Shown here in pieces: positions 1 to 23,888 of a stretch of DNA of 26,070 nucleotides (the first letter of the stretch is position 1; the number at the start of each line of letters is the position of its first letter). The translations under genes and the position numbers were made by a program. The DNA comes from Candidatus Terrybacteria bacterium RIFCSPLOWO2_01_FULL_58_14 (GTDB lineage: Bacteria > Patescibacteriota > Minisyncoccia > Terrybacterales > 2-01-FULL-58-14), in assembly GCA_001824745.1 (NCBI GenBank), contig MHSZ01000031.1, positions 11,309 to 37,378 on the forward strand. The letters are read 5' to 3'. Below the pieces are notes generated by a model. It saw nothing but the letters and a program-made list of their open reading frames with translations, made no database searches and was not told where the DNA came from.

Positions 1-2
1 GC

Positions 3-158
3 GGTGCGACCACCGGCGCCTGGCCCGGCATCCAATCCTTTGGCGGCTGGAAGATGAGCGGGCTTTCGGGTGTCAGCGCCTTCGGCCCCTGGTACCTCAC
101 CAAGTTCGGCCACGAGCAGTGCCGGACCGTAGTCCGCGAACGCCAAAAGAGGCAGTAA
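3..158 (+). CDS. C-terminal fragment of an aldehyde dehydrogenase family protein (1-pyrroline-5-carboxylate dehydrogenase-like), 5'-truncated by the window edge
   Basis: Frame from position 3 reads GATTGAWPGIQSFGGWKMSGLSGVSAFGPWYLTKFGHEQCRTVVRERQKRQ, stop TAA 156-158. The TGA-x-x-G-x-Q-x-FGG-x-K-x-SG segment matches the ALDH/P5CDH C-terminal signature. Absent from the ORF track because it has no start in the window. Confidence 0.8.
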   Translation, partial: GATTGAWPGIQSFGGWKMSGLSGVSAFGPWYLTKFGHEQCRTVVRERQKRQ

Positions 159-273: not shown

Positions 274-855
274 TCAGCGCTCCGCCTCAAGAGGGGCTAA
301 AAGCGCGGGAAGCTCCCTCCACGACTTCATCGCCACGATACCATCGAAGACCTGCTGCTCGTAATTCCCGAATGGATCAAAAAGGATTCGACACGGAACG
401 GATTGCAGGTACTGAAGCACTCCTTGCTGGTCATCAACGAACGCCACCACTCCTTCACGGGCACACACGTCATCTTTCTCGGAATCCTGATCTACGAAGA
501 AGAGCCGATCGGAAGGAATAAGCTCGGAGAGTTCCCTCGCAATCCACGTACCCGCTCCCGCTCGTCCATCCCCTTTTCTTCGAGAAACGAGAGAAAAGTG
601 CCAACCGCGTTTTCGGAGTTCTTCGAGCGTCTGTAAGACGCCGTCGTTGCGGGGAGAACCGTCGGCGAGCTTGCGGTAAAGCCGATGCTGAAGTTCACGA
701 TAGTGTTCCGGCGTCATGAGGTGCTGGAGGACTTCCGACGCCGTCTCGCGCGGCGTGAATGCGTAACCGAGGGACTCGGTGATCTCAAGTTTCGCTCCCG
801 TGTGATCGGCGAGTGTGCCGTCGAGATCCAAACCAAGATGCAAATGCGATGACAT
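274..855 (-). CDS. HAD-superfamily phosphatase, 5'(3')-deoxyribonucleotidase (NT5C)-like
   Basis: N-terminal HAD motif I GLDLDGTLAD, motif II VSRR, motif III K (SEK), motif IV AFVDD, C-terminal ILFDPFGN...SWREL typical of NT5C-like proteins; 193 aa. Confidence 0.8.
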   Translation of the reverse strand: MSSHLHLGLDLDGTLADHTGAKLEITESLGYAFTPRETASEVLQHLMTPEHYRELQHRLYRKLADGSPRNDGVLQTLEELRKRGWHFSLVSRRKGDGRAGAGTWIARELSELIPSDRLFFVDQDSEKDDVCAREGVVAFVDDQQGVLQYLQSVPCRILFDPFGNYEQQVFDGIVAMKSWRELPALLAPLEAER

Positions 856-890
856 ATGTATTCACGTTAGCGTGGGAAGAAGAATGAGAA

Positions 891-913
891 AAGCCCCCGC
901 ATGTATGCGGGGG
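891..913 (-). terminator. Intrinsic terminator of the P-loop kinase-like gene
   Basis: Minus strand reads CCCCCGC-ATACAT-GCGGGGG followed by CTTTTCTCATTCTTCTT, 5 nt after the stop at 919-921. Confidence 0.7.
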
Positions 914-918
914 TTCCA

Positions 919-1653
919 TTACGAAACAGCGCCGAGACGCTCTTCGAGCATTGCGAGTGTTCGGTCGAGAAGCATGGCGGCGACCTGCCTCGGCTCAACT
1001 CCTGTCGTATCCACAAGCACGACGGGTGCGCCGCGACGCTGCCAAAAACGATGCGCTTCACGTGCGATGTCGACAAGAAGCCGAATGGATTCAGGATTCG
1101 TGGTTTCGCCCAAAACATCCTCGGGCAGCGCTTTGCTGTTTCGGCGAATCGCTTCCTCGGGATCGCACACGGTGAAAAAGCAGATATCGACGGCGCTGCG
1201 CCATCGCGGATCCGTGAAGAATCGCTGGTATGCGCGGGCCGTCGGCTGATCGATTTTCCCCTTCCGCACCCAGTACTCCATCCAGCACCAGGGGTCGTAG
1301 AGACCGCGATCGAGGATCAGAAGATCGGTGCGCCGATCGTGCATCGCGTCGAGCACGAGCCCCAACTGGTAGATGCCCGTCCGAACGTTATACTCGGGGC
1401 CGGTACGCGGAATGTGTCGCACGACTTCGGCACCTTCTTGCGGGCGCTCCACCTGAAAATCGAGACGCCGGAAGAACGGATCAAAGATATCGATGAGGGT
1501 GGTCTTTCCTGCATCAGGAGAGCCGGTAAACTCAAGGATCACCGGTCGGGGAAGTGCTGCATGCTTGATACCCTGGGGATCGAGAAGCTCACGGATACGC
1601 CGCGCGCGTTCCGTCAATCTCAGCTCGGCCACTGCACTGCTCCGTATTTGCAA
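919..1653 (-). CDS. P-loop NTPase, thymidylate/deoxynucleoside-monophosphate kinase-like (AAA_28-like)
   Basis: Walker A GSPDAGKT (1501-1524), E after the P-loop (PQEGAE), kinase-type LILDRGLYD motif (D at 1309-1311), CDPEEAIRR lid and C-terminal VDTT. Start moved from 1695 to TTG at 1653 because GGAGAG precedes it and a promoter overlaps the 1695 TTG. Confidence 0.75.
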   Translation of the reverse strand: MQIRSSAVAELRLTERARRIRELLDPQGIKHAALPRPVILEFTGSPDAGKTTLIDIFDPFFRRLDFQVERPQEGAEVVRHIPRTGPEYNVRTGIYQLGLVLDAMHDRRTDLLILDRGLYDPWCWMEYWVRKGKIDQPTARAYQRFFTDPRWRSAVDICFFTVCDPEEAIRRNSKALPEDVLGETTNPESIRLLVDIAREAHRFWQRRGAPVVLVDTTGVEPRQVAAMLLDRTLAMLEERLGAVS

Positions 1654-1666
1654 AGTGCTCTCCGCT

Positions 1667-1695
1667 ACCCTACCCCGCTCACAACCCTGCCGCAA
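1667..1695 (-). promoter_or_regulatory. Sigma70-like promoter for the kinase-like gene
   Basis: Minus strand TTGCGG (1690-1695) - 17 nt - TAGGGT (1667-1672), 13 nt upstream of the TTG start. Confidence 0.5.
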
Positions 1696-1764
1696 GAAGT
1701 TTGACGCCGCGGGGCCCGCGATGCTTCAACGGACAAAGAGTACATTCCCAAGGAGCAATATCGA

Positions 1765-2460
1765 ATGGCTGCAGCGAAACCGCGCCCAAGCGACTTTAGC
1801 CCGATCCCCGTAAACGAGTTTCTCACGCGCACCGGCATCGACCTTGCACGGATACCCGGATGCGAGCACGTCGAACTCATCGTCTCCCCCCGCGATATCG
1901 CGCGTGTCGAAGATATCGCACTGATGCGGAACGAGTATCGCAATCAGCTCCTAGAATCCGTGGGGCTCGCAGAGAATCGTGGGCAACAACTCTACCGCGA
2001 CCGAGCTATTCATCAACTCCTCATCGATCCGCGCGATCTCGTTTTAGGCCAACGCTACGTCTATCGCCCGAACTATGTCTCCATCGTGGAGGAGCTTCGC
2101 GACCTCTTCGAGGGCTTTGGGGTTCGCGGGGGATTCACCCAGTTCTTCGCATGCCGCATCGTCGGCCAAGATCTCGAAGGCCACCGCGTCCTCGCGCACT
2201 TCCTCCCTCCGATCCTCGAACGGCATGGCGCGCGCCTCATCTTGATGGACGGCGTTCACCGAAACTATCTCGCCCGGCAAGCCGGCGTCTCCATTGAGTG
2301 CCTCGTGGTCGACAACGTCGTTGCGGCATTCCCGTGCTCGACACGACGCTGGGAGACGATTGCCGTCACGGACGTGAAGCCGCCGAACATCGAAGACCGT
2401 TACTTCGATCTCGACCGCGGCCTGTTTCGCGACGTGAAATACATCGGCATCGACGGATAA
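1765..2460 (+). CDS. ParB/Sulfiredoxin-fold protein of unknown function
   Basis: SD AAGGAG at 1750-1755. DPRDLVLGQRYV and PPILERHGARLILMDGVHRNYLARQAG (DGVHR at 2248-2262) match the ParB/Srx core PP...hhDGxHR. No HTH is evident after the core; 231 aa. Confidence 0.65.
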   Translation: MAAAKPRPSDFSPIPVNEFLTRTGIDLARIPGCEHVELIVSPRDIARVEDIALMRNEYRNQLLESVGLAENRGQQLYRDRAIHQLLIDPRDLVLGQRYVYRPNYVSIVEELRDLFEGFGVRGGFTQFFACRIVGQDLEGHRVLAHFLPPILERHGARLILMDGVHRNYLARQAGVSIECLVVDNVVAAFPCSTRRWETIAVTDVKPPNIEDRYFDLDRGLFRDVKYIGIDG

Positions 2461-2468
2461 GAGAACAT

Positions 2469-2491
2469 CCCCCGCCTTCCGGCGGGGGCTT
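2469..2491 (+). terminator. Intrinsic terminator of the ParB/Srx-like gene
   Basis: CCCCCGCC-TTCC-GGCGGGGG followed by CTTCCTTT, 8 nt after the stop. Confidence 0.7.
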
Positions 2492-2500
2492 CCTTTGCGC

Positions 2501-2529
2501 TTGCCTCAAAACGAAACCGTTGCTATTCT
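2501..2529 (+). promoter_or_regulatory. Sigma70-like promoter with extended -10 for the kinase-CYTH gene
   Basis: TTGCCT (2501-2506) - 17 nt - TATTCT (2524-2529) with TG at 2521-2522; SD-like GAGGAG upstream of ATG 2579. Confidence 0.6.
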
Positions 2530-2578
2530 GCGGCCACTCGCGATCTTTGAAAACCGAGGGTGAGAGGAGACGAAGATA

Positions 2579-3979
2579 ATGGCGCGCACGCGTTCGGCCA
2601 CTGAACGATTGGTTTCCGCGGGTATCCCCGAGGAACCCTTCACCGGAGAAGAGTTGGCGATCGTGCTCGAGGCGCTCCGAGAGACCATCGATCCACCGCG
2701 GCGCAAGAGCGACCCCGCGACGAAAACACTGCTCGTGGACTTCTTCGGTACCGCGAACTCCGGAAAAACGGCGACGACTGCGGAAATCGAACGTGCCTTC
2801 CGGAGGAATGGCTACCACGTATTCTGCCCTCCGGAGACCGCGGAGCTCGCAGAGATCCGCAACAAAGCCGTGGAGAATCCAACGGTCTTCCAGGCCCGCC
2901 ACCTCACCGGTATTCAGCACTACGTGCTGAATCTTGCACACAATCGGGATTTCCACCTCGCCATCATCAGTCGCGGCCTCATCGATATACTCTACTGGTA
3001 CGCGAAAGGCCGCCTCGACGGAATCTACAGCGCGACGCACTACGCCTCTGTCCGCCGCGTCGTCTTTGAGTTCCTCCGTCTCGATCTCGTCGACGCATTC
3101 TTTTTCTTCACCTGTTCAGCGGATGAGGCGATCCGCCGCGAATACGGCGAAGCAACAACCCAGCAACGCGGCTCGAGGATGAACGAACAAGTTCTCGCGG
3201 AGGCGCACGTCATCTACGAAGAGGTCCTCGCGGAGGTCGAGAAAAACGTCCCCGGCCTCCCGATCTTCCGGATCGACACGACTAACCTGAGCGTCCGAGA
3301 GGTCGCCGATGAAGCGCTCCGGCATCTCGTCCCCACGCTCTGTGCGCGCTTCTCCGTTCCCGAAGGACGCTATCTCCCCCATTCACTGACACTCCTCACG
3401 AAAACGGCGAATCGCATCCCTGTTTTCGAGGAGCAACTCAAGCTCCGCGGGCATCCGGACGCCGCCGCTCTCACCCGTCACGGCTGGGTGCACGAACGCA
3501 ACATTGCGCCTCGCGAAGAGATCTACCTCAACGCCAGGCCATCGGCGCTCGACGATCACGGCGTATTCGATGAGATCGTCCGTCTCCATCAAGAGGATGG
3601 CCTTTGGCGCTTCGTGTTCAAGAACCGAGCGGAGGATCGCCTCTTCTCGCATCGCCGGACGATCAACTTCGAGGTGAGCGACGAGGAGTCCCGCAACATC
3701 CTTGCGGTTTATCCAGAAATCCTCCGCCTCCGCCATACGCGCCATATCTTCCTCCAAGCGAGAGGCGACGACGGGCACTCCGACCATGTCCTCCACATCG
3801 ATTTGATCGAGGGTCTCGGAGATTTCACCGAACTCAAGGCGCGTGGCAGCGCCAAGACGACGCACACCCAAGAGCTTCTCGAGCTCGCGACCGCCTTGGG
3901 CTTCACGCCCGCCGATATCCTCGAAGGGAGCTACCTCCATCTTGCGCTCGCGCAACAGCACGAACGCGAAGGATTCTGA
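2579..3979 (+). CDS. Fusion of a P-loop dNMP-kinase-like domain and a C-terminal CYTH (class IV adenylyl cyclase/triphosphate tunnel) domain
   Basis: N-half: GTANSGKT (2747-2770), IISRGLID, CSADEAIRR, IDTT, collinear with the 919-1653 protein. C-half from about 3420: FEEQLK, REEIYLN, VRL, FVFK, LHIDLIEGLGDFTELK, LGF...ILEGSYLHL, matching the CyaB-like CYTH pattern. Confidence 0.75.
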   Translation: MARTRSATERLVSAGIPEEPFTGEELAIVLEALRETIDPPRRKSDPATKTLLVDFFGTANSGKTATTAEIERAFRRNGYHVFCPPETAELAEIRNKAVENPTVFQARHLTGIQHYVLNLAHNRDFHLAIISRGLIDILYWYAKGRLDGIYSATHYASVRRVVFEFLRLDLVDAFFFFTCSADEAIRREYGEATTQQRGSRMNEQVLAEAHVIYEEVLAEVEKNVPGLPIFRIDTTNLSVREVADEALRHLVPTLCARFSVPEGRYLPHSLTLLTKTANRIPVFEEQLKLRGHPDAAALTRHGWVHERNIAPREEIYLNARPSALDDHGVFDEIVRLHQEDGLWRFVFKNRAEDRLFSHRRTINFEVSDEESRNILAVYPEILRLRHTRHIFLQARGDDGHSDHVLHIDLIEGLGDFTELKARGSAKTTHTQELLELATALGFTPADILEGSYLHLALAQQHEREGF

Positions 3980-4034: not shown

Positions 4035-4892
4035 CTAGATGGGAAGCGCGAAGAGGCGTTTCGCATTCTCTGTCGTCTGTGCTGCCACATCGTCAAATGG
4101 TTTATTCTTTAAACTCGCGATGTGCTCGGCGACATATCGCACATAGATCGGCTCATTCCGCTTACCTCGGTGCGGAACAGGAGTCATATAGGGAATATCC
4201 GTTTCCACCATAATGCACTCAAGCGGCACGTCTCGGATCACCCCGTCCCATGCGGAGTTATAGGTAATGAGGCCGGTGAATGACAATGAGAAGCCGAGGT
4301 CAAGATACCGATGCGCTTGCTCAAGCGTTCCCGAATAACAATGTGCAACGCCACGAAGCCCTTGGGGGACGTACGCTGCGAGAATCGCGAGAGCGTCTTC
4401 GTGCGCGTCGCGCGGCTTGCCAGCAACAGGCCCGGAACGGCAGTGCTGAATCACGGGTTTATGGAGTTCGATCGCGAGATCGAGCTGTTGCCGGTACGTC
4501 GCCTCTTGTAACGCGCGATCCTCTTCGGACACCGAAAGACGATCAACGTAATCAAGGCCAACTTCGCCGAGCGCGACCGTGCGCGGATGTTCGGCAAGCG
4601 GCCGCCATTCCGCCTCGTCATAATGCGCACCGTATGTCTCAAACGCAGGGGAATCCTCCCCTCCCCCGTCAAAGTGGGCGGCCTTGAGATGAATTGGATG
4701 GAGCCCCACTGCGGCCCAGATATCGTCCGGGTATTTCTCGGCATAGTCGATGGCGCGGCGTGCCGTCCGGATTTCCGAGGACGGTGCGATCATCTTCACG
4801 CCCGCCTCAATCGCGCGCCGAATCACCTCGTCCGCATCGTCCTTGAATGCGGAAAACTGAACGTGGGCGTGGATATCGACCAGAAGAGTCAT
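4035..4892 (-). CDS. tatD: TatD family nuclease (amidohydrolase fold)
   Basis: VDIHAH, AVGLHP, ALGEVGLDY, PVIQHCR, VAHCYSG, ETDIPY and GKRNEP motifs; ATG overlaps the upstream TGA (ATGA). Confidence 0.93.
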   Translation of the reverse strand: MTLLVDIHAHVQFSAFKDDADEVIRRAIEAGVKMIAPSSEIRTARRAIDYAEKYPDDIWAAVGLHPIHLKAAHFDGGGEDSPAFETYGAHYDEAEWRPLAEHPRTVALGEVGLDYVDRLSVSEEDRALQEATYRQQLDLAIELHKPVIQHCRSGPVAGKPRDAHEDALAILAAYVPQGLRGVAHCYSGTLEQAHRYLDLGFSLSFTGLITYNSAWDGVIRDVPLECIMVETDIPYMTPVPHRGKRNEPIYVRYVAEHIASLKNKPFDDVAAQTTENAKRLFALPI

Positions 4893-5539
4893 CGACCAGA
4901 AGCTGCACGTGTTTTGAGATGACGACGAATCCTATTGAAAAACAGCACCGTCTCAACGGTAAGAAGGGTGCCGTAGTATAGTGCCCCCCATACCAATAAT
5001 GTCTGTGGCGACTCGCCAAACGATCCGCCGCTGATTTCCGGTTGAAAATCTCGGAGTTCGGGGGGGAAGGGGAAGATCTTTTCAAGAATCTGTGCAGCAA
5101 AAAGTGTGGCCAAGAGAAGTATGAGCAGAAGTACAACCGAAAACGCCAATAGACCCTCACGCACAGATGTACGCGTCCAAAAGTGTTTTGCCACGAAACT
5201 AGCAATGAAGACGACCGGGATATACCAATCGTTGAACACCCATATGAGCATAATCGACAACGTGACGATCGCTCCTAGTGGGAAATACCGATAAAAAATT
5301 TCGTGCCCCCAAGAAGGATGGTGAGTAACTTTCCCGCCGCGCAGTACCCCAGTGGCGACAAGGCTAAGAAATTCAATCATGACGAGCAATGGCCCGATGC
5401 GAAATATAAAATCGGCATTCGCCAACGGATTACGCAGGGCAGAAACAAAAAGCCCGACCAGGAAAAAGCCGCTCAGCGCGGATAAGCCAAAGGACGAAAC
5501 GTCTCCGAAGCTCCAAGAACGAGCGTTCATGCCCTCCAT
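4889..5539 (-). CDS. Multi-pass membrane protein, unknown function
   Basis: About six hydrophobic segments in 216 aa; stop overlaps the tatD start; alternative start ATG at 5530. Confidence 0.7.
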   Translation of the reverse strand: MEGMNARSWSFGDVSSFGLSALSGFFLVGLFVSALRNPLANADFIFRIGPLLVMIEFLSLVATGVLRGGKVTHHPSWGHEIFYRYFPLGAIVTLSIMLIWVFNDWYIPVVFIASFVAKHFWTRTSVREGLLAFSVVLLLILLLATLFAAQILEKIFPFPPELRDFQPEISGGSFGESPQTLLVWGALYYGTLLTVETVLFFNRIRRHLKTRAASGR

Positions 5540-12079: not shown

Positions 12080-15000
12080 TCACTGTCGAAGAGAGAGAAG
12101 AACGATCTTGCTCGTACCGTCGTCCAGCGTCGCGCGGAGTTGCCACGTACCCGAGGTCATGGTGTCGGTAGAGAGGTTGAACATGTACTGGTCGCCGGAG
12201 ACGCGGAAGAGATTGCCCGTATCTGCGGCAGAAATGGAGAGCGCCACCTCTTCCGTACCAATGATGCCGTCAGTGATCTTGGCGAGGAAGAGGTGAGCGG
12301 TCGCGGTGGAGACGGACTGATCGTTCGCGTCGGTGAGACGGAACTTCACCGGGAGGGTCCTCCCCTGCTTGTAGATGCCGGAGCCGTCGGCTTTCACGGG
12401 CGGAAAGAAACCGCCGAAGTCATAGACGACAGCGAAAGTGATGGTTTCCGTGGTGGTGTTGCCGGCGTTGTCTTGGGCGGTGAGGACGATGGCGTGGGGG
12501 CCGGGGACGGTGAAGGAAAGGACGGAGCCGCTGGCGAAGGGCTGGCCGTCGAGGGTAGCAGAGACCGACGCGGCGCCAGAGAGCGTATCTTCCGCCGAGT
12601 AGGTGAACGCGAACGGTGAGGTGTTGAGGAGGTACTCCGGATCAAGCGAAATGTGGGCGATGGCGGGGCCAGTGTCGTCCACCACGCCTTCGTCCACGGT
12701 GGGCTCCTCGATGGTGCCGCTAATAATATGCACCCTTGTCTCTCCGGGGTTGACCGTGATGTTTTCGACAGGGGTTGCCGCGAAACGCTGGGAGGAGGCG
12801 TCATAGGTAATGGCGCCGAAAGTATAGGCTTCTTCGAGGGATGGGAGCGAAGCTGCGATGTCGGGGTGCTCTTGGAAGAATTGTTCGATGTCTCGGGAGG
12901 AAACCGCGAAGCGGACCTCGGTACCTACAGGAACGACAATCCACTCTTCGTCGCTCCATAAATCTCCAGATGCGCTGGCCCCAGGAATCTGGATCTCATA
13001 ATCTCCCGTGGAGTAATTCATCCCCACGTGAAGGCCGTCTGATGTGTACGCATGGAGATCCAAATCCGGCAGGACTTGGCCGTCATCAATGCCCACCGGA
13101 GAGCCAAAAGCCGAATGTGAAGTAGGTGCTTCCCGATCACCAGCGAAAGCCATTCCCAATAACTGCGGCAAAAAAACAAGCAATGCGAGAATGATGCTTA
13201 CGAGAAGGAAAAGGACCAACAAAAACAATTTTCGATTGCGCTTCTCTATAAATAGATCTTTCCTCCAAAGAATCACGAGCGCCAACGCAGAGATAACAAG
13301 AAATCCATATACAAAAGGAAGAGCCTCGGGAAAACCGGGTAGCCAATCTTCTTGTGGGCCAACGACTGTAACGGGGACACTTTCGTCGACACGAAGTGGC
13401 CCGCCAAATCCCCAAATCCGTTCAAGTAAGGAATCGTCTTGTCGATAAAAGGCGACCACCACATCAGCATAATTACCCGCCGTAAGCTGGACGTTCGCCT
13501 GAAAACTATCAACCTGACTCTGGAAACCCATGAGGGTAGCGGAGAATCCTCGAACCGGCTCTATGAATTGTGCGCCTACTCCTTCGAGCGCGGAAGCGAC
13601 GTTGACGTACTTAACCGGTTGACCGCTTGTCGTTGAAGGGGAGATTTTGTAAATAACCAGAGCGGTCTCGGGAACATTCACGTCCCATCGGCTGTAGAAT
13701 GGATCATCGGTTCTCGCTTCAAGCAGATAGTAAACGCCGTCGGGGAAATTGTATCTAGCCACCATCTCGCCTGGTCCCGTTGTCTCTAACGACTCAATGG
13801 CGTGCGTTCCGAAACCAACAACTTCCTCCCGTAGCCACCCCAACTTGATCTTGTTAAACGATGATAAATGGGCCGGATCGGTCGAAAGGAGTTTCTCAAA
13901 CAGAGACCCGGCCATAAGATCCCACTCCCCGAGCGACCCGCCATCTTGGCAAGAAGATTGTTTATAGAGATCACAAATCGCTACATCATTCACGAGAAAT
14001 CCGATACGGTGTCCCAACTCATGCGCCCACTCTCGAAGCTGATCTTCTTCGGCAACAACAGCCCAATGCTGTACGGGCGCCGATGAGACGTATGTCCCCC
14101 AATCCTCTGGCCCCCACGCTTCGGTGATAAGCCGATGAGGTTCACTGATTGCGAACACCTCTTCCCGATGCCCAGGATGAACGGCAACGGCAATTTGATA
14201 ATCGCCGCTGGCGATACCCGCAGCCGCCATCGCGTCCCAAACGAATTGCTCAGTTTGATCTTTCGCACTCGAAATCACAATCTCGAGGGTGCCATCGTCG
14301 TTGATATCGACGCCGTGTGGCCCCCTGGTGTTTTCGGCGTATTCTTCAATGGTCTTATCCAAAACAAAATTCTGTCCGGAATCGTCTAAAACCGTGAAAT
14401 CCAACTCAACTAACCCATTCTCGCAAGGCGCCGTCGGACTCGCCCTCGTCCCAAACGACACCTCGCACCAGTAGTCCTTCATCTTCGGGATAATCTCGTT
14501 CTCAAAATAGACCTTGTCGCGGCCCGCCGCGAAGTCGCTCCCCTCCGGCTCCGCCAGGATCACCGCAACCTTGATGGTGCGCGCCGTCTGCACGACGAAA
14601 TCCACATTCCCCACCGTCCCAAACTCCTGCCAATCGGAAAATGTGCCCTGATCATCCATCGCCCTCGCCCGCCACTTATATTGTCCGTCGGCCAACCCGG
14701 ATCGAGTGACGGAGGCTGCGGTGCCTGACGGCACGAATGCGCTCTCGGCGATCCCGCCGTCGAAGTTCCCGGTGAATGGCTCGGCGAACTGCCGAAGCTC
14801 GATCTGAAGCTTAGCCGAACGATCTTCGGGGCTCGAGGGGGTTGCGGAGAACATGGCGGTGTCCTCAGTGGTCGTGGCGCCTTCGGCAACTAGGGTAGCG
14901 GCATCGGATTTAAGCTGTTGTAGCGCATTGATCGTCGGCGCTTGGAGAACTATAGGAGGACCGAAGTTGTAAAAAGCGTCTTTTACGTTTGCGTCAAGCG

Positions 15001-15535
15001 TTATCCAAGAATTATCGCGCGTGAGTTGCCCGGGAGAGGAAACGGGGTTTGAGGAGCCGTATATCGCCACCGGAATGGAATTCTGGGAAACCACCTGCAG
15101 GCCGTAGCAGATGCCCGCGGTAGGCGCAAAGGGCACCCAGGTACCGTCGCTGTTCGGAACATCGCCGCTTACCCAGGTGAACTCGTACGAATCAACGCCG
15201 CCGCTGTTGATAGCCGGAAGCGTTTGGGAAACCCTGACGTAGCCATAGAACACAGGCGGGTCTTCGCATGCGCCCCCGGCGACGGAAGGATGCGAGAGCT
15301 GCATGAGCCGCGCCTGAACCTGCGTAGCGTTCGTGCTCCGGAGGAGTACCTGCACGCCCGCGCTCGCCGCTTGGAAATCCGTTGGCGTTTGATTCGTGAG
15401 CGTCTGCCGCCAGTCGGTCGAGGCCGCCGTGCTCGTCGAGGAAAAATCCAATTGCCCGATATCGGCTAAGACGAGTCGGGGCGCTAAAAAGAAAACGGCG
15501 AGCAACGATAAAGATATAATAAGTAGTTTTTTCAC
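12080..15535 (-). CDS. Large secreted/membrane protein: signal peptide, Ig/Fn3-like domain, M6 (immune inhibitor A-like) metalloprotease domain, two hydrophobic helices, C-terminal Ig-like and PxKF-type domain
   Basis: Signal MKKLLIISLSLLAVFFLAPRLVLA; WAHELGH (HELGH at 14009-14023) followed by CDLY, LGEWDLMAG and PAHLSSFNKIKLGWL as in M6-family domains; hydrophobic helices at about 13265-13321 and 13146-13229; C-terminal YDFGGFFPPV...GRTLPVKFRL. GTG start. Confidence 0.8.
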   Translation of the reverse strand: MKKLLIISLSLLAVFFLAPRLVLADIGQLDFSSTSTAASTDWRQTLTNQTPTDFQAASAGVQVLLRSTNATQVQARLMQLSHPSVAGGACEDPPVFYGYVRVSQTLPAINSGGVDSYEFTWVSGDVPNSDGTWVPFAPTAGICYGLQVVSQNSIPVAIYGSSNPVSSPGQLTRDNSWITLDANVKDAFYNFGPPIVLQAPTINALQQLKSDAATLVAEGATTTEDTAMFSATPSSPEDRSAKLQIELRQFAEPFTGNFDGGIAESAFVPSGTAASVTRSGLADGQYKWRARAMDDQGTFSDWQEFGTVGNVDFVVQTARTIKVAVILAEPEGSDFAAGRDKVYFENEIIPKMKDYWCEVSFGTRASPTAPCENGLVELDFTVLDDSGQNFVLDKTIEEYAENTRGPHGVDINDDGTLEIVISSAKDQTEQFVWDAMAAAGIASGDYQIAVAVHPGHREEVFAISEPHRLITEAWGPEDWGTYVSSAPVQHWAVVAEEDQLREWAHELGHRIGFLVNDVAICDLYKQSSCQDGGSLGEWDLMAGSLFEKLLSTDPAHLSSFNKIKLGWLREEVVGFGTHAIESLETTGPGEMVARYNFPDGVYYLLEARTDDPFYSRWDVNVPETALVIYKISPSTTSGQPVKYVNVASALEGVGAQFIEPVRGFSATLMGFQSQVDSFQANVQLTAGNYADVVVAFYRQDDSLLERIWGFGGPLRVDESVPVTVVGPQEDWLPGFPEALPFVYGFLVISALALVILWRKDLFIEKRNRKLFLLVLFLLVSIILALLVFLPQLLGMAFAGDREAPTSHSAFGSPVGIDDGQVLPDLDLHAYTSDGLHVGMNYSTGDYEIQIPGASASGDLWSDEEWIVVPVGTEVRFAVSSRDIEQFFQEHPDIAASLPSLEEAYTFGAITYDASSQRFAATPVENITVNPGETRVHIISGTIEEPTVDEGVVDDTGPAIAHISLDPEYLLNTSPFAFTYSAEDTLSGAASVSATLDGQPFASGSVLSFTVPGPHAIVLTAQDNAGNTTTETITFAVVYDFGGFFPPVKADGSGIYKQGRTLPVKFRLTDANDQSVSTATAHLFLAKITDGIIGTEEVALSISAADTGNLFRVSGDQYMFNLSTDTMTSGTWQLRATLDDGTSKIVLLSLRQ

Positions 15536-15662: not shown

Positions 15663-17360
15663 CTAGAGCTGCACAATCCCCTGCTGGGGAGAAATCTTCG
15701 TATCGTCGGGAACGGTGCTGTCGACTGCGGCATCTTGCGCGTCGAGCGTCTGCGACACGAAGGTGTCGAGCCCTGTTGCGCTCACGGCGGTGAGGAGTTC
15801 TGCCGTATCTCCGACGTCTTCTTGGCGCGGGGTGAGCACGATGCGGAAAGAGATGCTCTTGGGAGACGAGAGGATACCAACGCCTGCAGGGACATCCCCC
15901 ACCGTCCACTGCACCTCGCTCGTCGCCGGATCGTACACCACGTCCCCGACGCCCGAAGTGAGAAGCGCCTCGTACGTCACCGCCGGCCCCAAGACGACGC
16001 GCGCAACCACGTTCTCAAGGCCATTTGTTCCTCCCGTAACGGTGAGGGTAACGGTATAAGAGGTTTGCTGGCCTACTTTCGGCGGGATCGAGCCGCGATT
16101 ATTTCCCCCCGGCGCATCGAAGTACCGCACCTCCGCATCAACTGCCAACTCCCCTACAATCTTCAGAACGAGACGGCGTTCCCCAAGAACTCGTCCCCCG
16201 GATATTGTCCTCGCCCGTACAGTGATCGTCTGCTCGTCATCTTCAAAGCTCCTCATGGGTACGTCGGAGGAAAGGCGCGCTCGAAACGCGATCTCTCCGG
16301 AAGCGCCCGGCCCCACCCGCTGGAGCGCTAAGACGTTCTCCGGCGCCCAAACGAACTCCCCGGAGACCGAACGCGTGAACCGTTCCGGCGACGAGACGGA
16401 TTCCGGCACAATCGCCTCGTGGGCGAATGCAAGCAACACCGAGAGATCTTCCAGCGGCTCACTCGTGGCATTCCGGTAATGGAGAACGAGATCGACGTTC
16501 TCTCCTGGCGCCACGAGTGCTTCAGCGGGGTTCTCCTGCTCCCGATAGACGACATCTAAGGGAACGGCGCCGGCGCGGAGATTGAGATACTCCCGAACCT
16601 CTCGCGAAGCGCTGAGCGAACGCCGTCCTTCATCGAGAAAGCCGATACGGGCCGTAAACTCGCCGCCGGCACTTCCTGCAGGAAACGTTCCCGTCACGGC
16701 AATCTCTCCTCGCCGGCCTGCCTCAAGCATTCCGAAGTCCCAAAGCCCTCCCGCGTCGGGAACCTCCGCGGGTCTCGTACGGGTCACCCGGAATCCTTCC
16801 GGTATCAGGAGTGTGAGGCCCACAGGACCGATGGGCGCTTCTGCGCGAGAAGAAAACCGGAGGAAAAACGTAAGCGGCTTCCCATCGCTCGCGTCGGCAG
16901 GAAAGGAAAATGAGAGATCAAGGGGAAGTTCACGGAGGCGGACGCTCGTTTTCGCCTCGCGCGTAAACACCGCGGAGAGCTGTCGCGGCTGAAAACGCGC
17001 GCGGGCGACAAGCTCGCCCGAAGTCCCCGCGTCCCCCATAACCCGAACCCGGAAACTAGCGGCGGTCTGCGCGCGCGGTGCCAAGGTTTCGAACGTCGTT
17101 TCCGCACTCTCCTGCAGTGTAAATTCCGAAGGGAGATCCAGTGCGATAGTGCCGCCACGAAGCGTGGCGCCCGTGTTATTCGTCACGAGAACGCGCACAT
17201 CCGCTTCGGTGCCAAGGTCGAGCTCTGCGGGTGCTTCAATGGCAATGATGACACCCGAGGAATCGAAACCGAAAGTGCGCGCAAGAAGGAACGCGGCGAC
17301 GATTGCCGCCGCGCCAATCAACGCAACCGCGGTAGCGCGCGGGGTGAAAGGGAATCGCAT
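15663..17360 (-). CDS. N-terminally anchored surface protein with repeated Ig-like (DUF11/CARDB-like) domains
   Basis: TM helix VALIGAAAIVAAFLLA; repeated segments VRVLVTNNTG...V.LDLP, LVLHYRNAT, YTVTLTVTGG and WDFGML/WTVGDV; 565 aa. Confidence 0.7.
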   Translation of the reverse strand: MRFPFTPRATAVALIGAAAIVAAFLLARTFGFDSSGVIIAIEAPAELDLGTEADVRVLVTNNTGATLRGGTIALDLPSEFTLQESAETTFETLAPRAQTAASFRVRVMGDAGTSGELVARARFQPRQLSAVFTREAKTSVRLRELPLDLSFSFPADASDGKPLTFFLRFSSRAEAPIGPVGLTLLIPEGFRVTRTRPAEVPDAGGLWDFGMLEAGRRGEIAVTGTFPAGSAGGEFTARIGFLDEGRRSLSASREVREYLNLRAGAVPLDVVYREQENPAEALVAPGENVDLVLHYRNATSEPLEDLSVLLAFAHEAIVPESVSSPERFTRSVSGEFVWAPENVLALQRVGPGASGEIAFRARLSSDVPMRSFEDDEQTITVRARTISGGRVLGERRLVLKIVGELAVDAEVRYFDAPGGNNRGSIPPKVGQQTSYTVTLTVTGGTNGLENVVARVVLGPAVTYEALLTSGVGDVVYDPATSEVQWTVGDVPAGVGILSSPKSISFRIVLTPRQEDVGDTAELLTAVSATGLDTFVSQTLDAQDAAVDSTVPDDTKISPQQGIVQL

Positions 17361-23813: not shown

Positions 23814-23888
23814 TGGTGGACCTGAGGGGATTCGAACCCCTGACCCCTGCAATGCGAATGCAGTGCTCTACCGCTGAGCTACAGGCCC
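23814..23888 (-). tRNA. tRNA-Ala (anticodon CGC), CCA encoded
   Basis: Minus strand GGGCCTG-TA-GCTC-AGCGGTA-GAGC-A-CTGCA-TTCGCAT-TGCAG-GGGTC-AGGGG-TTCGAAT-CCCCT-CAGGTCC-A-CCA; full cloverleaf with G3:U70, the alanine identity pair. Confidence 0.98.

Follow-up and report, generated by a model that had tools for sequence, protein, structure and literature searches.

Positions 274-3979 of a 26,070-nucleotide stretch of the Candidatus Terrybacteria bacterium RIFCSPLOWO2_01_FULL_58_14 genome hold four adjacent genes that probably represent a modular accessory cluster of Parcubacteria-type Patescibacteria, acting on free nucleosides and nucleotides and serving the homeostasis or sanitation of the nucleotide pool in a cell that depends on salvage. 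The stretch as a whole, hereafter the window (G000:C31:11309-37378), comes from an assembly of 814 kb in 34 contigs that is 92% complete (G000), and its proteins have their nearest named relatives in Candidatus Terrybacteria and in other metagenome-assembled genomes (MAGs) of the Parcubacteria group. The genes encode a HAD phosphatase, a stand-alone P-loop kinase (KinA), a ParB/Srx-fold protein (for brevity, ParB) and a second kinase, KinB, fused to a CYTH domain. An original prediction made from the letters of the window had placed four genes here, and all four are present; its count was right, but the CYTH domain is not a gene of its own, being instead a domain of the second kinase gene. That prediction had also proposed that the genes are functionally linked around nucleotides, a view that recurrent neighbourhoods and family matches support, and it had expected their homologues to occur together in other genomes, as our gene-neighbourhood survey finds them to do, both by adjacency and by association at the level of whole genomes. 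What recurs is modular and not a fixed four-part set, with the phosphatase at its centre and KinB-CYTH as an optional, often unlinked partner.

A phosphatase-centred gene neighbourhood

A profile of the ParB-like protein was run against a sample of 401 genomes of the class, and the DNA around the positives was fetched. The protein occurs in 28 genomes, belonging to 25 of 283 genera and spread over at least six families, and the same HAD family directly adjoins it in 19 of the 28. A canonical NT5C gene (98 bits) takes this place in G388 (1 of 28), and in a distant ParB clade confined to one family (f60; 5 of 28) the neighbour is a HAD_2-type phosphatase, Pfam-confirmed in G078 and represented in the other four by same-sized, Pfam-untested open reading frames (ORFs). 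The ParB neighbour is a NUDIX gene in G277 and not assessable in G353, where the contig starts at ParB, and no phosphatase was detected in G138, which has a truncated ParB copy (one genome each). Relative to each other, the HAD and ParB genes may be divergent, convergent or in tandem, and this variation in orientation argues against mere inherited synteny.

Nine of the 28 genomes have a KinA-type kinase after ParB, as do most of the additional named MAGs, usually across a gap of 14 nt or less or with an overlap, and the commonest layout is a HAD gene divergent from a ParB-KinA pair (HAD <- -> ParB-KinA). The separate transcription units that had been proposed for the four genes describe the window itself; in its relatives, ParB and KinA are mostly co-directional and closely spaced or overlapping. 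Where a KinA-type kinase occurs in a genome that lacks ParB, the same HAD family is its immediate neighbour in 14 of 17 cases. Since the phosphatase adjoins ParB in the one set of genomes, and KinA in the absence of ParB in the other, it is the hub of the cluster, and its partners are a KinA-type kinase, a ParB-like protein or both.

All four genes lie adjacent in three genomes, namely the window's own, G011 and L085; in G011 they share one strand and are joined by a fifth gene, for another kinase. The product of this extra gene (L008:4485-5072) is a 195-aa AAA_17/AAA_18 kinase that matches the kinase part of the PADLOC dCTPase model (2.8e-25) as well as phage dNMP-kinase PHROGs. Full-length KinB-CYTH was found in 9 of the 401 genomes, often on a different contig from its module partners. 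ParB is present in five of these nine, compared with 23 of the 392 others (Fisher 1.2e-4), and ParB or KinA in seven, compared with 40 of 392 (Fisher 6e-6), p-values that overstate the case in that related genomes are not independent.

The linkage of HAD and ParB extends beyond the class, to G650, L072, L116 and L118/119. In the last of these, a metagenomic lineage, a kinase-HAD-ParB trio forms an operon with 4-nt overlaps in which both the kinase (185 aa, AAA_28) and the HAD protein (type IIIA/PNK3P-like) are non-orthologous to those of the window. In one 344-aa protein, P0180 (L071:5001-6035), a ParB-CE-like domain and a HAD-like C-terminus form a single chain (hhalign 95.9%). Its HAD-like part has motifs II-IV only, with DN replacing DD, and its gene adjoins those for a Fic protein, an N6/N4 methyltransferase and a BamHI-like protein.

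Other arrangements were seen in passing. In G078 (L069:5560-8689), and in the homologous stretches L065, L066, L068 and L070, ParB sits in a one-strand operon that runs from a dCTP-deaminase-like gene through HAD_2 and ParB to the serine hydroxymethyltransferase (SHMT) gene, in some with a canonical Tmk gene between the last two. Two tandem ParB-like paralogues, one of the long type described below and one of the short ParB-CE type, stand beside a single HAD gene in G380 (L051:2448-3798). In two genomes (L008 and L009) the module lies within gene sets for cell-envelope polysaccharides (Bac_transf, GT4, GT2, WecG/TagA, Wzy_C and LytR_cpsA_psr), which may be coincidence.

Predicted activities of the four proteins

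The HAD protein is predicted to belong to the NT5C-type 5'(3')-deoxyribonucleotidases. It matches Pfam NT5C (PF06941) marginally over the curated cut-off (E 1.5e-5; 25.4 bits, cut-off 24.8) along residues 7-185 of 193, and its family profile aligns end to end, over positions 4-179 of 180, with the putative 5'(3')-deoxyribonucleotidase 3bwv (6.9e-7). The stretch of 79 residues between motifs I and II is included in this full-length NT5C-type alignment, all of the nearest ESM-Atlas clusters are NT5C nucleotidases, and HAD motifs I-IV (D10-x-D12, S91, K127 and D141-D142) are invariant across 26 homologues.

KinA and KinB are predicted to be dNK/TMK-like P-loop nucleoside or nucleotide kinases at the level of fold, and they are paralogues of each other (BLASTP 29% identity, E 1e-17; hhalign 99.9%, E 1e-32). 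We place the start of KinA at codon 22 of its longest ORF because the Atlas record begins at residue 22 and the homologues measure 236-245 aa. Its Walker A motif reads GSPDAGKT (G58-x4-G63-K64-T), and this motif, together with E87, R130, D134 and the LID arginine R185, is invariant or nearly so in 22 homologues. Pfam matches are weak, with AAA_28, dNK and TMK all below their curated cut-offs and AAA_28 (the NadR/Ttd14 kinase family) foremost at 20.1 bits against 27; the Atlas labels the KinA cluster 'NadR/Ttd14 AAA domain'. Against the PDB, the best full-domain match of the KinA profile is Drosophila deoxynucleoside kinase (Dm-dNK; 3e-5, residues 31-172), followed by thymidylate kinases. KinB has the Walker A motif GTANSGKT and retains the LID arginine (R185 in KinA, R187 in KinB), whereas in place of the DR motif of KinA it has SR (S131-R132), with serine for the acidic residue. 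By Foldseek, structures of dNK, dAK, dCK and TMK match the KinB model (1e-5 to 3e-6).

The fused architecture of KinB-CYTH is itself conserved, with 43 full-length homologues of about 450-470 aa, and the AlphaFold2 (AF2) model of the window protein (pLDDT 86.6, pTM 0.83) has as its top Foldseek match the tandem kinase and triphosphate-tunnel (TTM) module of Arabidopsis TTM1 (7z67; 3e-13). The CYTH domain matches SaTTM, the Sulfolobus tripolyphosphatase, and PH1819 by profile (1.9e-9 and 4.3e-9), and SaTTM, PH1819, 1yem and CyaB by structure (Foldseek TM-scores of 0.7-0.84 by target), in keeping with an eight-stranded tunnel fold. It also matches TIGR00318 at 1.4e-5, with 25 bits, below the equivalog threshold of 57.95 for the class IV adenylate cyclase CyaB. 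Aligned to SaTTM, the domain has E284-E285-Q286-L-K288 in place of ExExK and E418-I-R420 in place of the C-terminal ExE; two of the four metal-binding acidic residues are lost and the basic tunnel is kept, with K348, R388 and D408 invariant and Q286 likewise invariant across 23 sequences. The suggestion that the CYTH domain hydrolyses or cyclises triphosphates has therefore become doubtful, because E-x-Q-x-K and E-x-R each lack one glutamate of the expected pairs, and a role in ligand sensing is more likely for the domain than one as a cyclase or triphosphatase. The neighbourhoods of KinB-CYTH homologues on long contigs are mostly uninformative; in one (L014:5069-8031) the gene lies between a NUDIX gene and a YfbR-like HD 5'-deoxynucleotidase gene, with neither ParB nor HAD.

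All 10 of the VIA matches of the AF2 model of ParB (pLDDT 88.5) at Z of at least 2 are ParB/Srx proteins, led by Atu1540 (6.3), Srx (6.1), PadC (5.6) and SerK (5.6); the structural matches also take in SbnI, the N-terminal part of pNOB8 ParB, KorB, Osa and SspE, and the top Foldseek rows give the same ParB/Srx set. In sequence, the window protein carries PPILE...MDGVHR, with P148, P149, E152, D162-G163-x-H165-R166 and W196 invariant, and no invariant cysteine is present that could be the equivalent of the Srx catalytic residue. The gene is preceded by a Shine-Dalgarno sequence, AAGGAG, at 1750-1755. The nearest Pfam family is ParB-CE (PF24392), against which the window protein scores 19.5 bits (cut-off 23) and its aligned homologues 59.5, 44.7 and 22.2; used as a phylum-wide probe, PF24392 detected only 4 of the 401 genomes, with the window's own gene not among its matches, and is thus unsuitable for what we term the 'long' clade, whose members are extended by about 80 residues at the N-terminus and have a C-terminal tail of the form RYFDL...FRD...GIDG. 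A canonical partition ParB (ParABS) was rejected, as the 231-aa protein has no match to a helix-turn-helix (HTH) domain and a ParA-type gene was seen neither in the window nor in the surveyed loci. A survey of the ParB fold (PNAS 2025) makes no mention of this clade or of HAD or CYTH partners.

Two further families resemble the ParB model. Its closest ESM-Atlas cluster (TM 0.87) comprises 53 members and bears the label 71% Archaea, chiefly Nanobdellota (DPANN archaea), which hints at a wider spread among ultra-small symbionts. In a 625-aa family of Bacteroidota, a similar fold is fused to patatin and iHKD domains.

Nucleotide context and host genome

Beyond the phosphatase and the kinases, the recurrent neighbours of ParB are NUDIX, HD, dCTP-deaminase-like, Tmk and SHMT genes, and in other phyla the kinase fold of KinA and KinB recurs fused to NUDIX, HD or CYTH domains. 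The host genome encodes its own Tmk, Dcd, ThyX and Ndk, and the cluster is therefore not a divergent set of housekeeping enzymes. The canonical Tmk gene (96 bits; G000:C1:31712-32287) is a direct neighbour of Dcd, with no HAD-ParB insert. Given this separate Tmk, and KinB scores of 16.9-17.5 bits against a cut-off of 27 for PF02223, canonical Tmk was rejected as an identity for the kinases, in agreement with the original prediction; canonical dNK was likewise rejected, the Pfam dNK match being below cut-off, and the presence of Ndk led us to reject ParB as its replacement. No match to ribonucleotide reductase (RNR), ThyA or canonical dNK was found in the 92% complete genome.

Neither the four window proteins nor their G011 counterparts gave a match in PADLOC. 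A named defence system was rejected on these grounds, and the earlier impression that the combination is not a named system holds.

A probable nucleotide-pool function and its alternatives

Together, the predicted activities suggest a scheme in which the HAD protein and a kinase would form a cycle, phosphorylating and dephosphorylating (deoxy)nucleosides and their monophosphates. The DGxHR/PPxxE site of the ParB-like enzyme may hold a nucleoside or deoxynucleoside triphosphate (NTP or dNTP). The enzyme could then strip phosphoanhydride phosphates and feed the HAD protein, the pair taking (d)NTP to nucleoside, or it could instead transfer phosphate, as SerK and Srx do. KinB would be a second kinase, gated by its CYTH domain through the sensing of a triphosphate-bearing ligand, as has been proposed for Arabidopsis TTM1. 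The net role would probably be to set or sanitise the (d)NTP/(d)NMP pool of an organism that lives by salvage, with sanitation against phage-triggered depletion as one option. The more elaborate idea that the cluster writes, reads and erases an unusual nucleotide in signalling must be called speculation, since we found nothing pointing either to such a nucleotide or to such a logic.

This metabolic reading is favoured by the housekeeping neighbourhoods, the frequent HAD-kinase pairs that lack ParB, the Dcd-Tmk-SHMT context, and the lack of a sensor or a PADLOC match. A number of observations weigh on the other side. We infer all activities and substrates of the HAD protein, the kinases and ParB from distant similarity; the window's KinA, KinB and ParB all score below the curated Pfam cut-offs, the structural Z of about 6 establishes the fold of ParB alone, and its profile meets no PDB sequence at E <= 1. 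The window genes are split over both strands with terminator-like hairpins between them, and KinB-CYTH also occurs as a solitary gene in unrelated neighbourhoods. The sister genome G001, the closest relative, has HAD and ParB at the syntenic locus beside tatD and the methionyl-tRNA synthetase (MetRS) gene and has neither kinase; the kinases are therefore optional, and the four genes are no obligate unit. RNR occurs in 15 of the 28 ParB-positive genomes and in 211 of 401 overall, so the module is independent of RNR loss, and the idea that it replaces a missing RNR was rejected. Finally, a kinase together with a HAD phosphatase is also the architecture of a polynucleotide kinase-phosphatase (PNKP).

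The alternative that survives best is an anti-phage depletion module, in which a ParB-CE-type enzyme and the HAD protein would collapse (d)NTP pools on infection, and the kinases and CYTH domain would sense or process phage-derived nucleotides. A HAD protein and a nucleotide phosphohydrolase do form an experimentally shown dNTP-depleting effector pair (bioRxiv 10.64898/2026.01.15.699771), and relatives of the window ParB exceed the ParB-CE cut-off well (59.5 and 44.7 bits), although the window protein itself lies under it. The patchy distribution over genomes and genera would suit such a role, as would the patatin/iHKD fusions of a similar fold in Bacteroidota, the position of P0180 beside a restriction-modification pair and Fic, and the resemblance of the extra G011 kinase to the kinase part of a PADLOC dCTPase model. 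Yet PADLOC is empty for the window proteins and their G011 counterparts, no recognisable sensor (PUA, STAND or CARF) is present, and the window flanks are housekeeping genes (aldehyde dehydrogenase, tatD, MetRS, an rRNA methylase, an aminoacyl-tRNA synthetase and RecO), with uniform GC content and no mobile-element genes. The HAD-kinase pair is moreover common without ParB, and in one clade ParB has Dcd, Tmk and SHMT for neighbours. We regard a depletion module as unlikely.

A different use of the same folds would be the healing or repair of nucleic-acid ends, with the kinase as a 5'-OH polynucleotide kinase, the HAD protein as a 3'-phosphatase (a split PNKP), ParB as a nuclease or NTPase and CYTH as a polynucleotide 5'-triphosphatase. 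Besides the shared PNKP architecture, this is suggested by a weak match of the window HAD to PHROG 415 'polynucleotide kinase' (9.4e-5), by the PNK3P-type Pfam match of the HAD protein in the L118/119 operon, by the L116 trio, which stands beside MGMT, an HhH-GPD glycosylase and AP endonuclease 2, and by the tatD gene that adjoins the cluster in the window. The window HAD, however, aligns with the NT5C type in full, the region between motifs I and II included, and has only NT5C clusters nearby in the Atlas; the kinases best match dNK, TMK and dCK by sequence and structure, with no polynucleotide kinase among the top matches listed; no ligase or nuclease partner recurs; and the synteny with tatD is limited to the sister genome. 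An end-healing role thus seems improbable to us.

Slightly less probable still is a salvage route to NAD, in which both KinA and KinB would phosphorylate nicotinamide riboside as kinases of the NadR type and the HAD protein would serve as a nicotinamide mononucleotide (NMN) 5'-nucleotidase. The AAA_28 match and the Atlas label of KinA point that way, as do fusions of related kinases to NUDIX or HD domains; but the AAA_28 match is sub-threshold and no better than those to dNK and TMK, the PDB profile matches are to dNK and TMK and not to NadR, and the gene contexts are those of Dcd, Tmk and SHMT and not of NAD genes. That the four are unrelated neighbours with only phosphate chemistry in common, as their two strands, the intervening hairpins and the solitary KinB-CYTH genes might suggest, is very improbable and is contradicted by the neighbourhood survey, given adjacency that recurs over many families with changing orientations, a trio kept despite non-orthologous replacement of HAD and kinase, a ParB-HAD domain fusion and enrichment at the genome level.

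Window features and flanking genes

The cluster lies between an aldehyde dehydrogenase (ALDH) gene and tatD, as had been noted from the letters; both genes are confirmed, and the former, on the plus strand, ends at window position 57 (Table 1). The two hairpins in the table are matches to a terminator consensus, and the window's total of terminator-like sites is not above that of shuffled sequence (9 against 6.2 +/- 3.0). Rfam and tRNA scans found no RNA element inside the cluster. Two overlapping ORFs were rejected as genes and taken for shadow frames: a minus-strand ORF at 2-271, with no family match and overlapping a better-supported gene, and a plus-strand ORF at 901-1704, with no family match and overlapping KinA.

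Table 1. Features of the cluster and its immediate flanks, in window coordinates.
Feature	Position	Strand	Remarks
Aldehyde dehydrogenase gene, 3' end	1..57	+	Flank, outside the module; ORF L115:1405-3066(+), Aldedh 349 bits
NT5C-type HAD phosphatase (predicted 5'-(deoxy)nucleotidase), 193 aa	274..855	-	Pfam NT5C, 3bwv profile match, HAD motifs
Terminator-like hairpin, KinA/HAD gap	894..913	-	8-bp stem with 7 G-C pairs, then T-rich tail; consensus match only
KinA, dNK/TMK-like P-loop kinase, 237 aa	919..1632	-	Longest ORF 919-1695; likely start codon 22, nt 1632
Divergent intergenic region, KinA to ParB	1633..1764	.	No Rfam family or tRNA; contains ParB Shine-Dalgarno sequence
ParB/Srx-fold protein, 231 aa	1765..2460	+	Related to Pfam ParB-CE ('long' clade); predicted to bind NTP and act as phosphohydrolase or phosphotransferase
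Bidirectional terminator-like hairpin, ParB/KinB gap	2469..2488	both	8 G-C pairs; consensus match only
KinB-CYTH fusion protein, 466 aa	2579..3979	+	One gene: N-terminal kinase and C-terminal CYTH/TTM
KinB kinase domain (residues ~45-260), KinA paralogue	2711..3358	+	BLASTP, hhalign, Foldseek
CYTH/TTM domain (residues ~278-466), partly degenerate metal site	3410..3976	+	Profile and structure matches
tatD-family nuclease	4035..4892	-	Flank; TatD_DNase 247 bits

The GC content of the window is even throughout (0.55-0.63), its neighbourhood has no mobile-element genes, and the flanks, which beyond MetRS include genes for an RsmI-like methylase, an AI-2E transporter, an M16 peptidase, a class II aminoacyl-tRNA synthetase and RecO, are of an ordinary housekeeping kind. 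Synteny of the module with tatD is confined to the sister genome G001, and the order tatD-ORF-MetRS is common to G000 and G001. The ORF between tatD and MetRS (4889-5539, minus strand, 216 aa) has no Pfam or NCBIfam match, and in the sister genome a 198-aa ORF (L006:3295-3891) takes the same position.

Farther along, a minus-strand ORF of 1151 aa (12080-15535) has no Pfam match at E <= 0.001, and the gene next to it (15663-17360, minus strand) encodes NPCBM_assoc/DUF11 surface-protein repeats. The sole RNA gene found in the window is a tRNA-Ala(CGC) at 23814-23888 on the minus strand. The gene for leucyl-tRNA synthetase, which lies a short way upstream of the window (L115:1-1440, minus strand; G000:C31:8300-9740), appears to contain an alpha/beta serine-hydrolase domain (PF06821 Ser_hydrolase, 1.4e-11) as an insert between the catalytic core and the editing domain.

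Discussion

Patescibacteria have no de novo nucleotide synthesis, and the management of their precursor pools is poorly understood; the module is among the few recurrent, lineage-typical gene sets that bear on these pools. It may be, and we put this tentatively, that the cluster reflects an undescribed nucleotide-pool pathway of Patescibacteria, and possibly of DPANN archaea, in which a ParB-fold metabolic enzyme (an NTP/dNTP phosphohydrolase or phosphotransferase) would work with a dedicated nucleoside kinase and an NT5C nucleotidase under the gating of a kinase-TTM triphosphate sensor. If true, the ParB fold would acquire an enzymatic role that is new for it, and CYTH a novel use in regulation, in organisms that depend on salvage alone. 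New in the present analysis are the tie between the HAD-kinase-ParB trio and the kinase-CYTH fusion, seen both in adjacency and at the genome level, the place of the HAD phosphatase as hub, the degenerate CYTH site with its plant TTM1 parallel, and the independence of the module from RNR.

The cluster also offers three test cases: for the biochemistry of the ParB-CE branch, so far a matter of prediction alone; for an NT5C-type phosphatase teamed with a second nucleotide enzyme, a kind of pairing that has recently proved to act as an immune effector in E. coli; and for a catalytically degenerate CYTH domain as possible ligand sensor of a fused kinase outside plants. As the four proteins are small and look soluble, direct assays are feasible.

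Set against known systems, ParB falls closest to the ParB-CE family (PF24392), which has already been described, computationally only; Nicastro, Burroughs, Iyer and Aravind reportedly defined it, in NAR in 2023, as a predicted nucleotide-targeting conflict effector. The two share a stand-alone ParB/Srx fold with a DGxHR core, lacking HTH, parA and parS, and free nucleotides as predicted substrates. They differ in that the window protein stays below the family cut-off within a 'long' clade that the Pfam model mostly misses, and in that it stands among housekeeping genes with an NT5C-type HAD and with dNK-like kinases as its fixed partners, and with no recognisable immune sensors; with PADLOC empty and such flanks, ParB was not found as the effector of a recognisable conflict or immune system.

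SerK, SbnI and sulfiredoxin are likewise small enzymatic ParB/Srx folds, with a nucleotide as phosphoryl donor, and SerK aligns with nearly the whole ParB model (Z 5.6, residues 9-224). Unlike them, at about 10-16% identity, ParB shows no match at the sequence level and no invariant Srx-type cysteine, and its contexts are nucleotide enzymes and not cysteine or siderophore pathways.

For the phosphatase and its kinases, the nearest parallel is metabolic. Animal cells run substrate cycles between deoxynucleoside kinases (dNK, TK2 or dCK) and the 5'-deoxynucleotidases NT5C and NT5M. Here, too, an NT5C-family nucleotidase and a dNK/TMK-fold kinase are predicted to act in opposite directions on the same pool, but their genes are conserved as a pair, the kinases bear little resemblance to canonical dNK, and the ParB-like and CYTH partners have no classical counterpart.

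The sole experimentally tested precedent for a HAD enzyme working with a second nucleotide-targeting enzyme is the E. coli PUA-Calcineurin-CE-HAD anti-phage system, whose HAD takes dNTP to dNDP and whose partner takes dNDP to dNMP in an obligate pairing (bioRxiv 10.64898/2026.01.15.699771). The present cluster differs from it in having no PUA-like sensor or calcineurin-fold enzyme, the partner being of the ParB/Srx fold, and in having kinases, for which a pure depletion effector has no need.

KinB-CYTH, lastly, finds its parallel in Arabidopsis TTM1 and TTM2 (7z67; PMC9582702), in which an N-terminal P-loop nucleoside-type kinase is likewise followed by a C-terminal triphosphate-tunnel domain with a metal-binding Glu-to-Gln change; in TTM1 the tunnel is catalytically inactive, and the domain has been proposed as a regulator of the fused nucleoside kinase (PMC9582702). 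The bacterial protein departs from the plant ones in that KinB is dNK/TMK-like and not uridine-cytidine-kinase-like, in that one glutamate of each pair is replaced, and in having no coiled coil or membrane anchor. The kinase-TTM architecture has been called plant-unique (PMC9582702); the KinB-CYTH family is a bacterial counterpart and an independent example of such a fusion.

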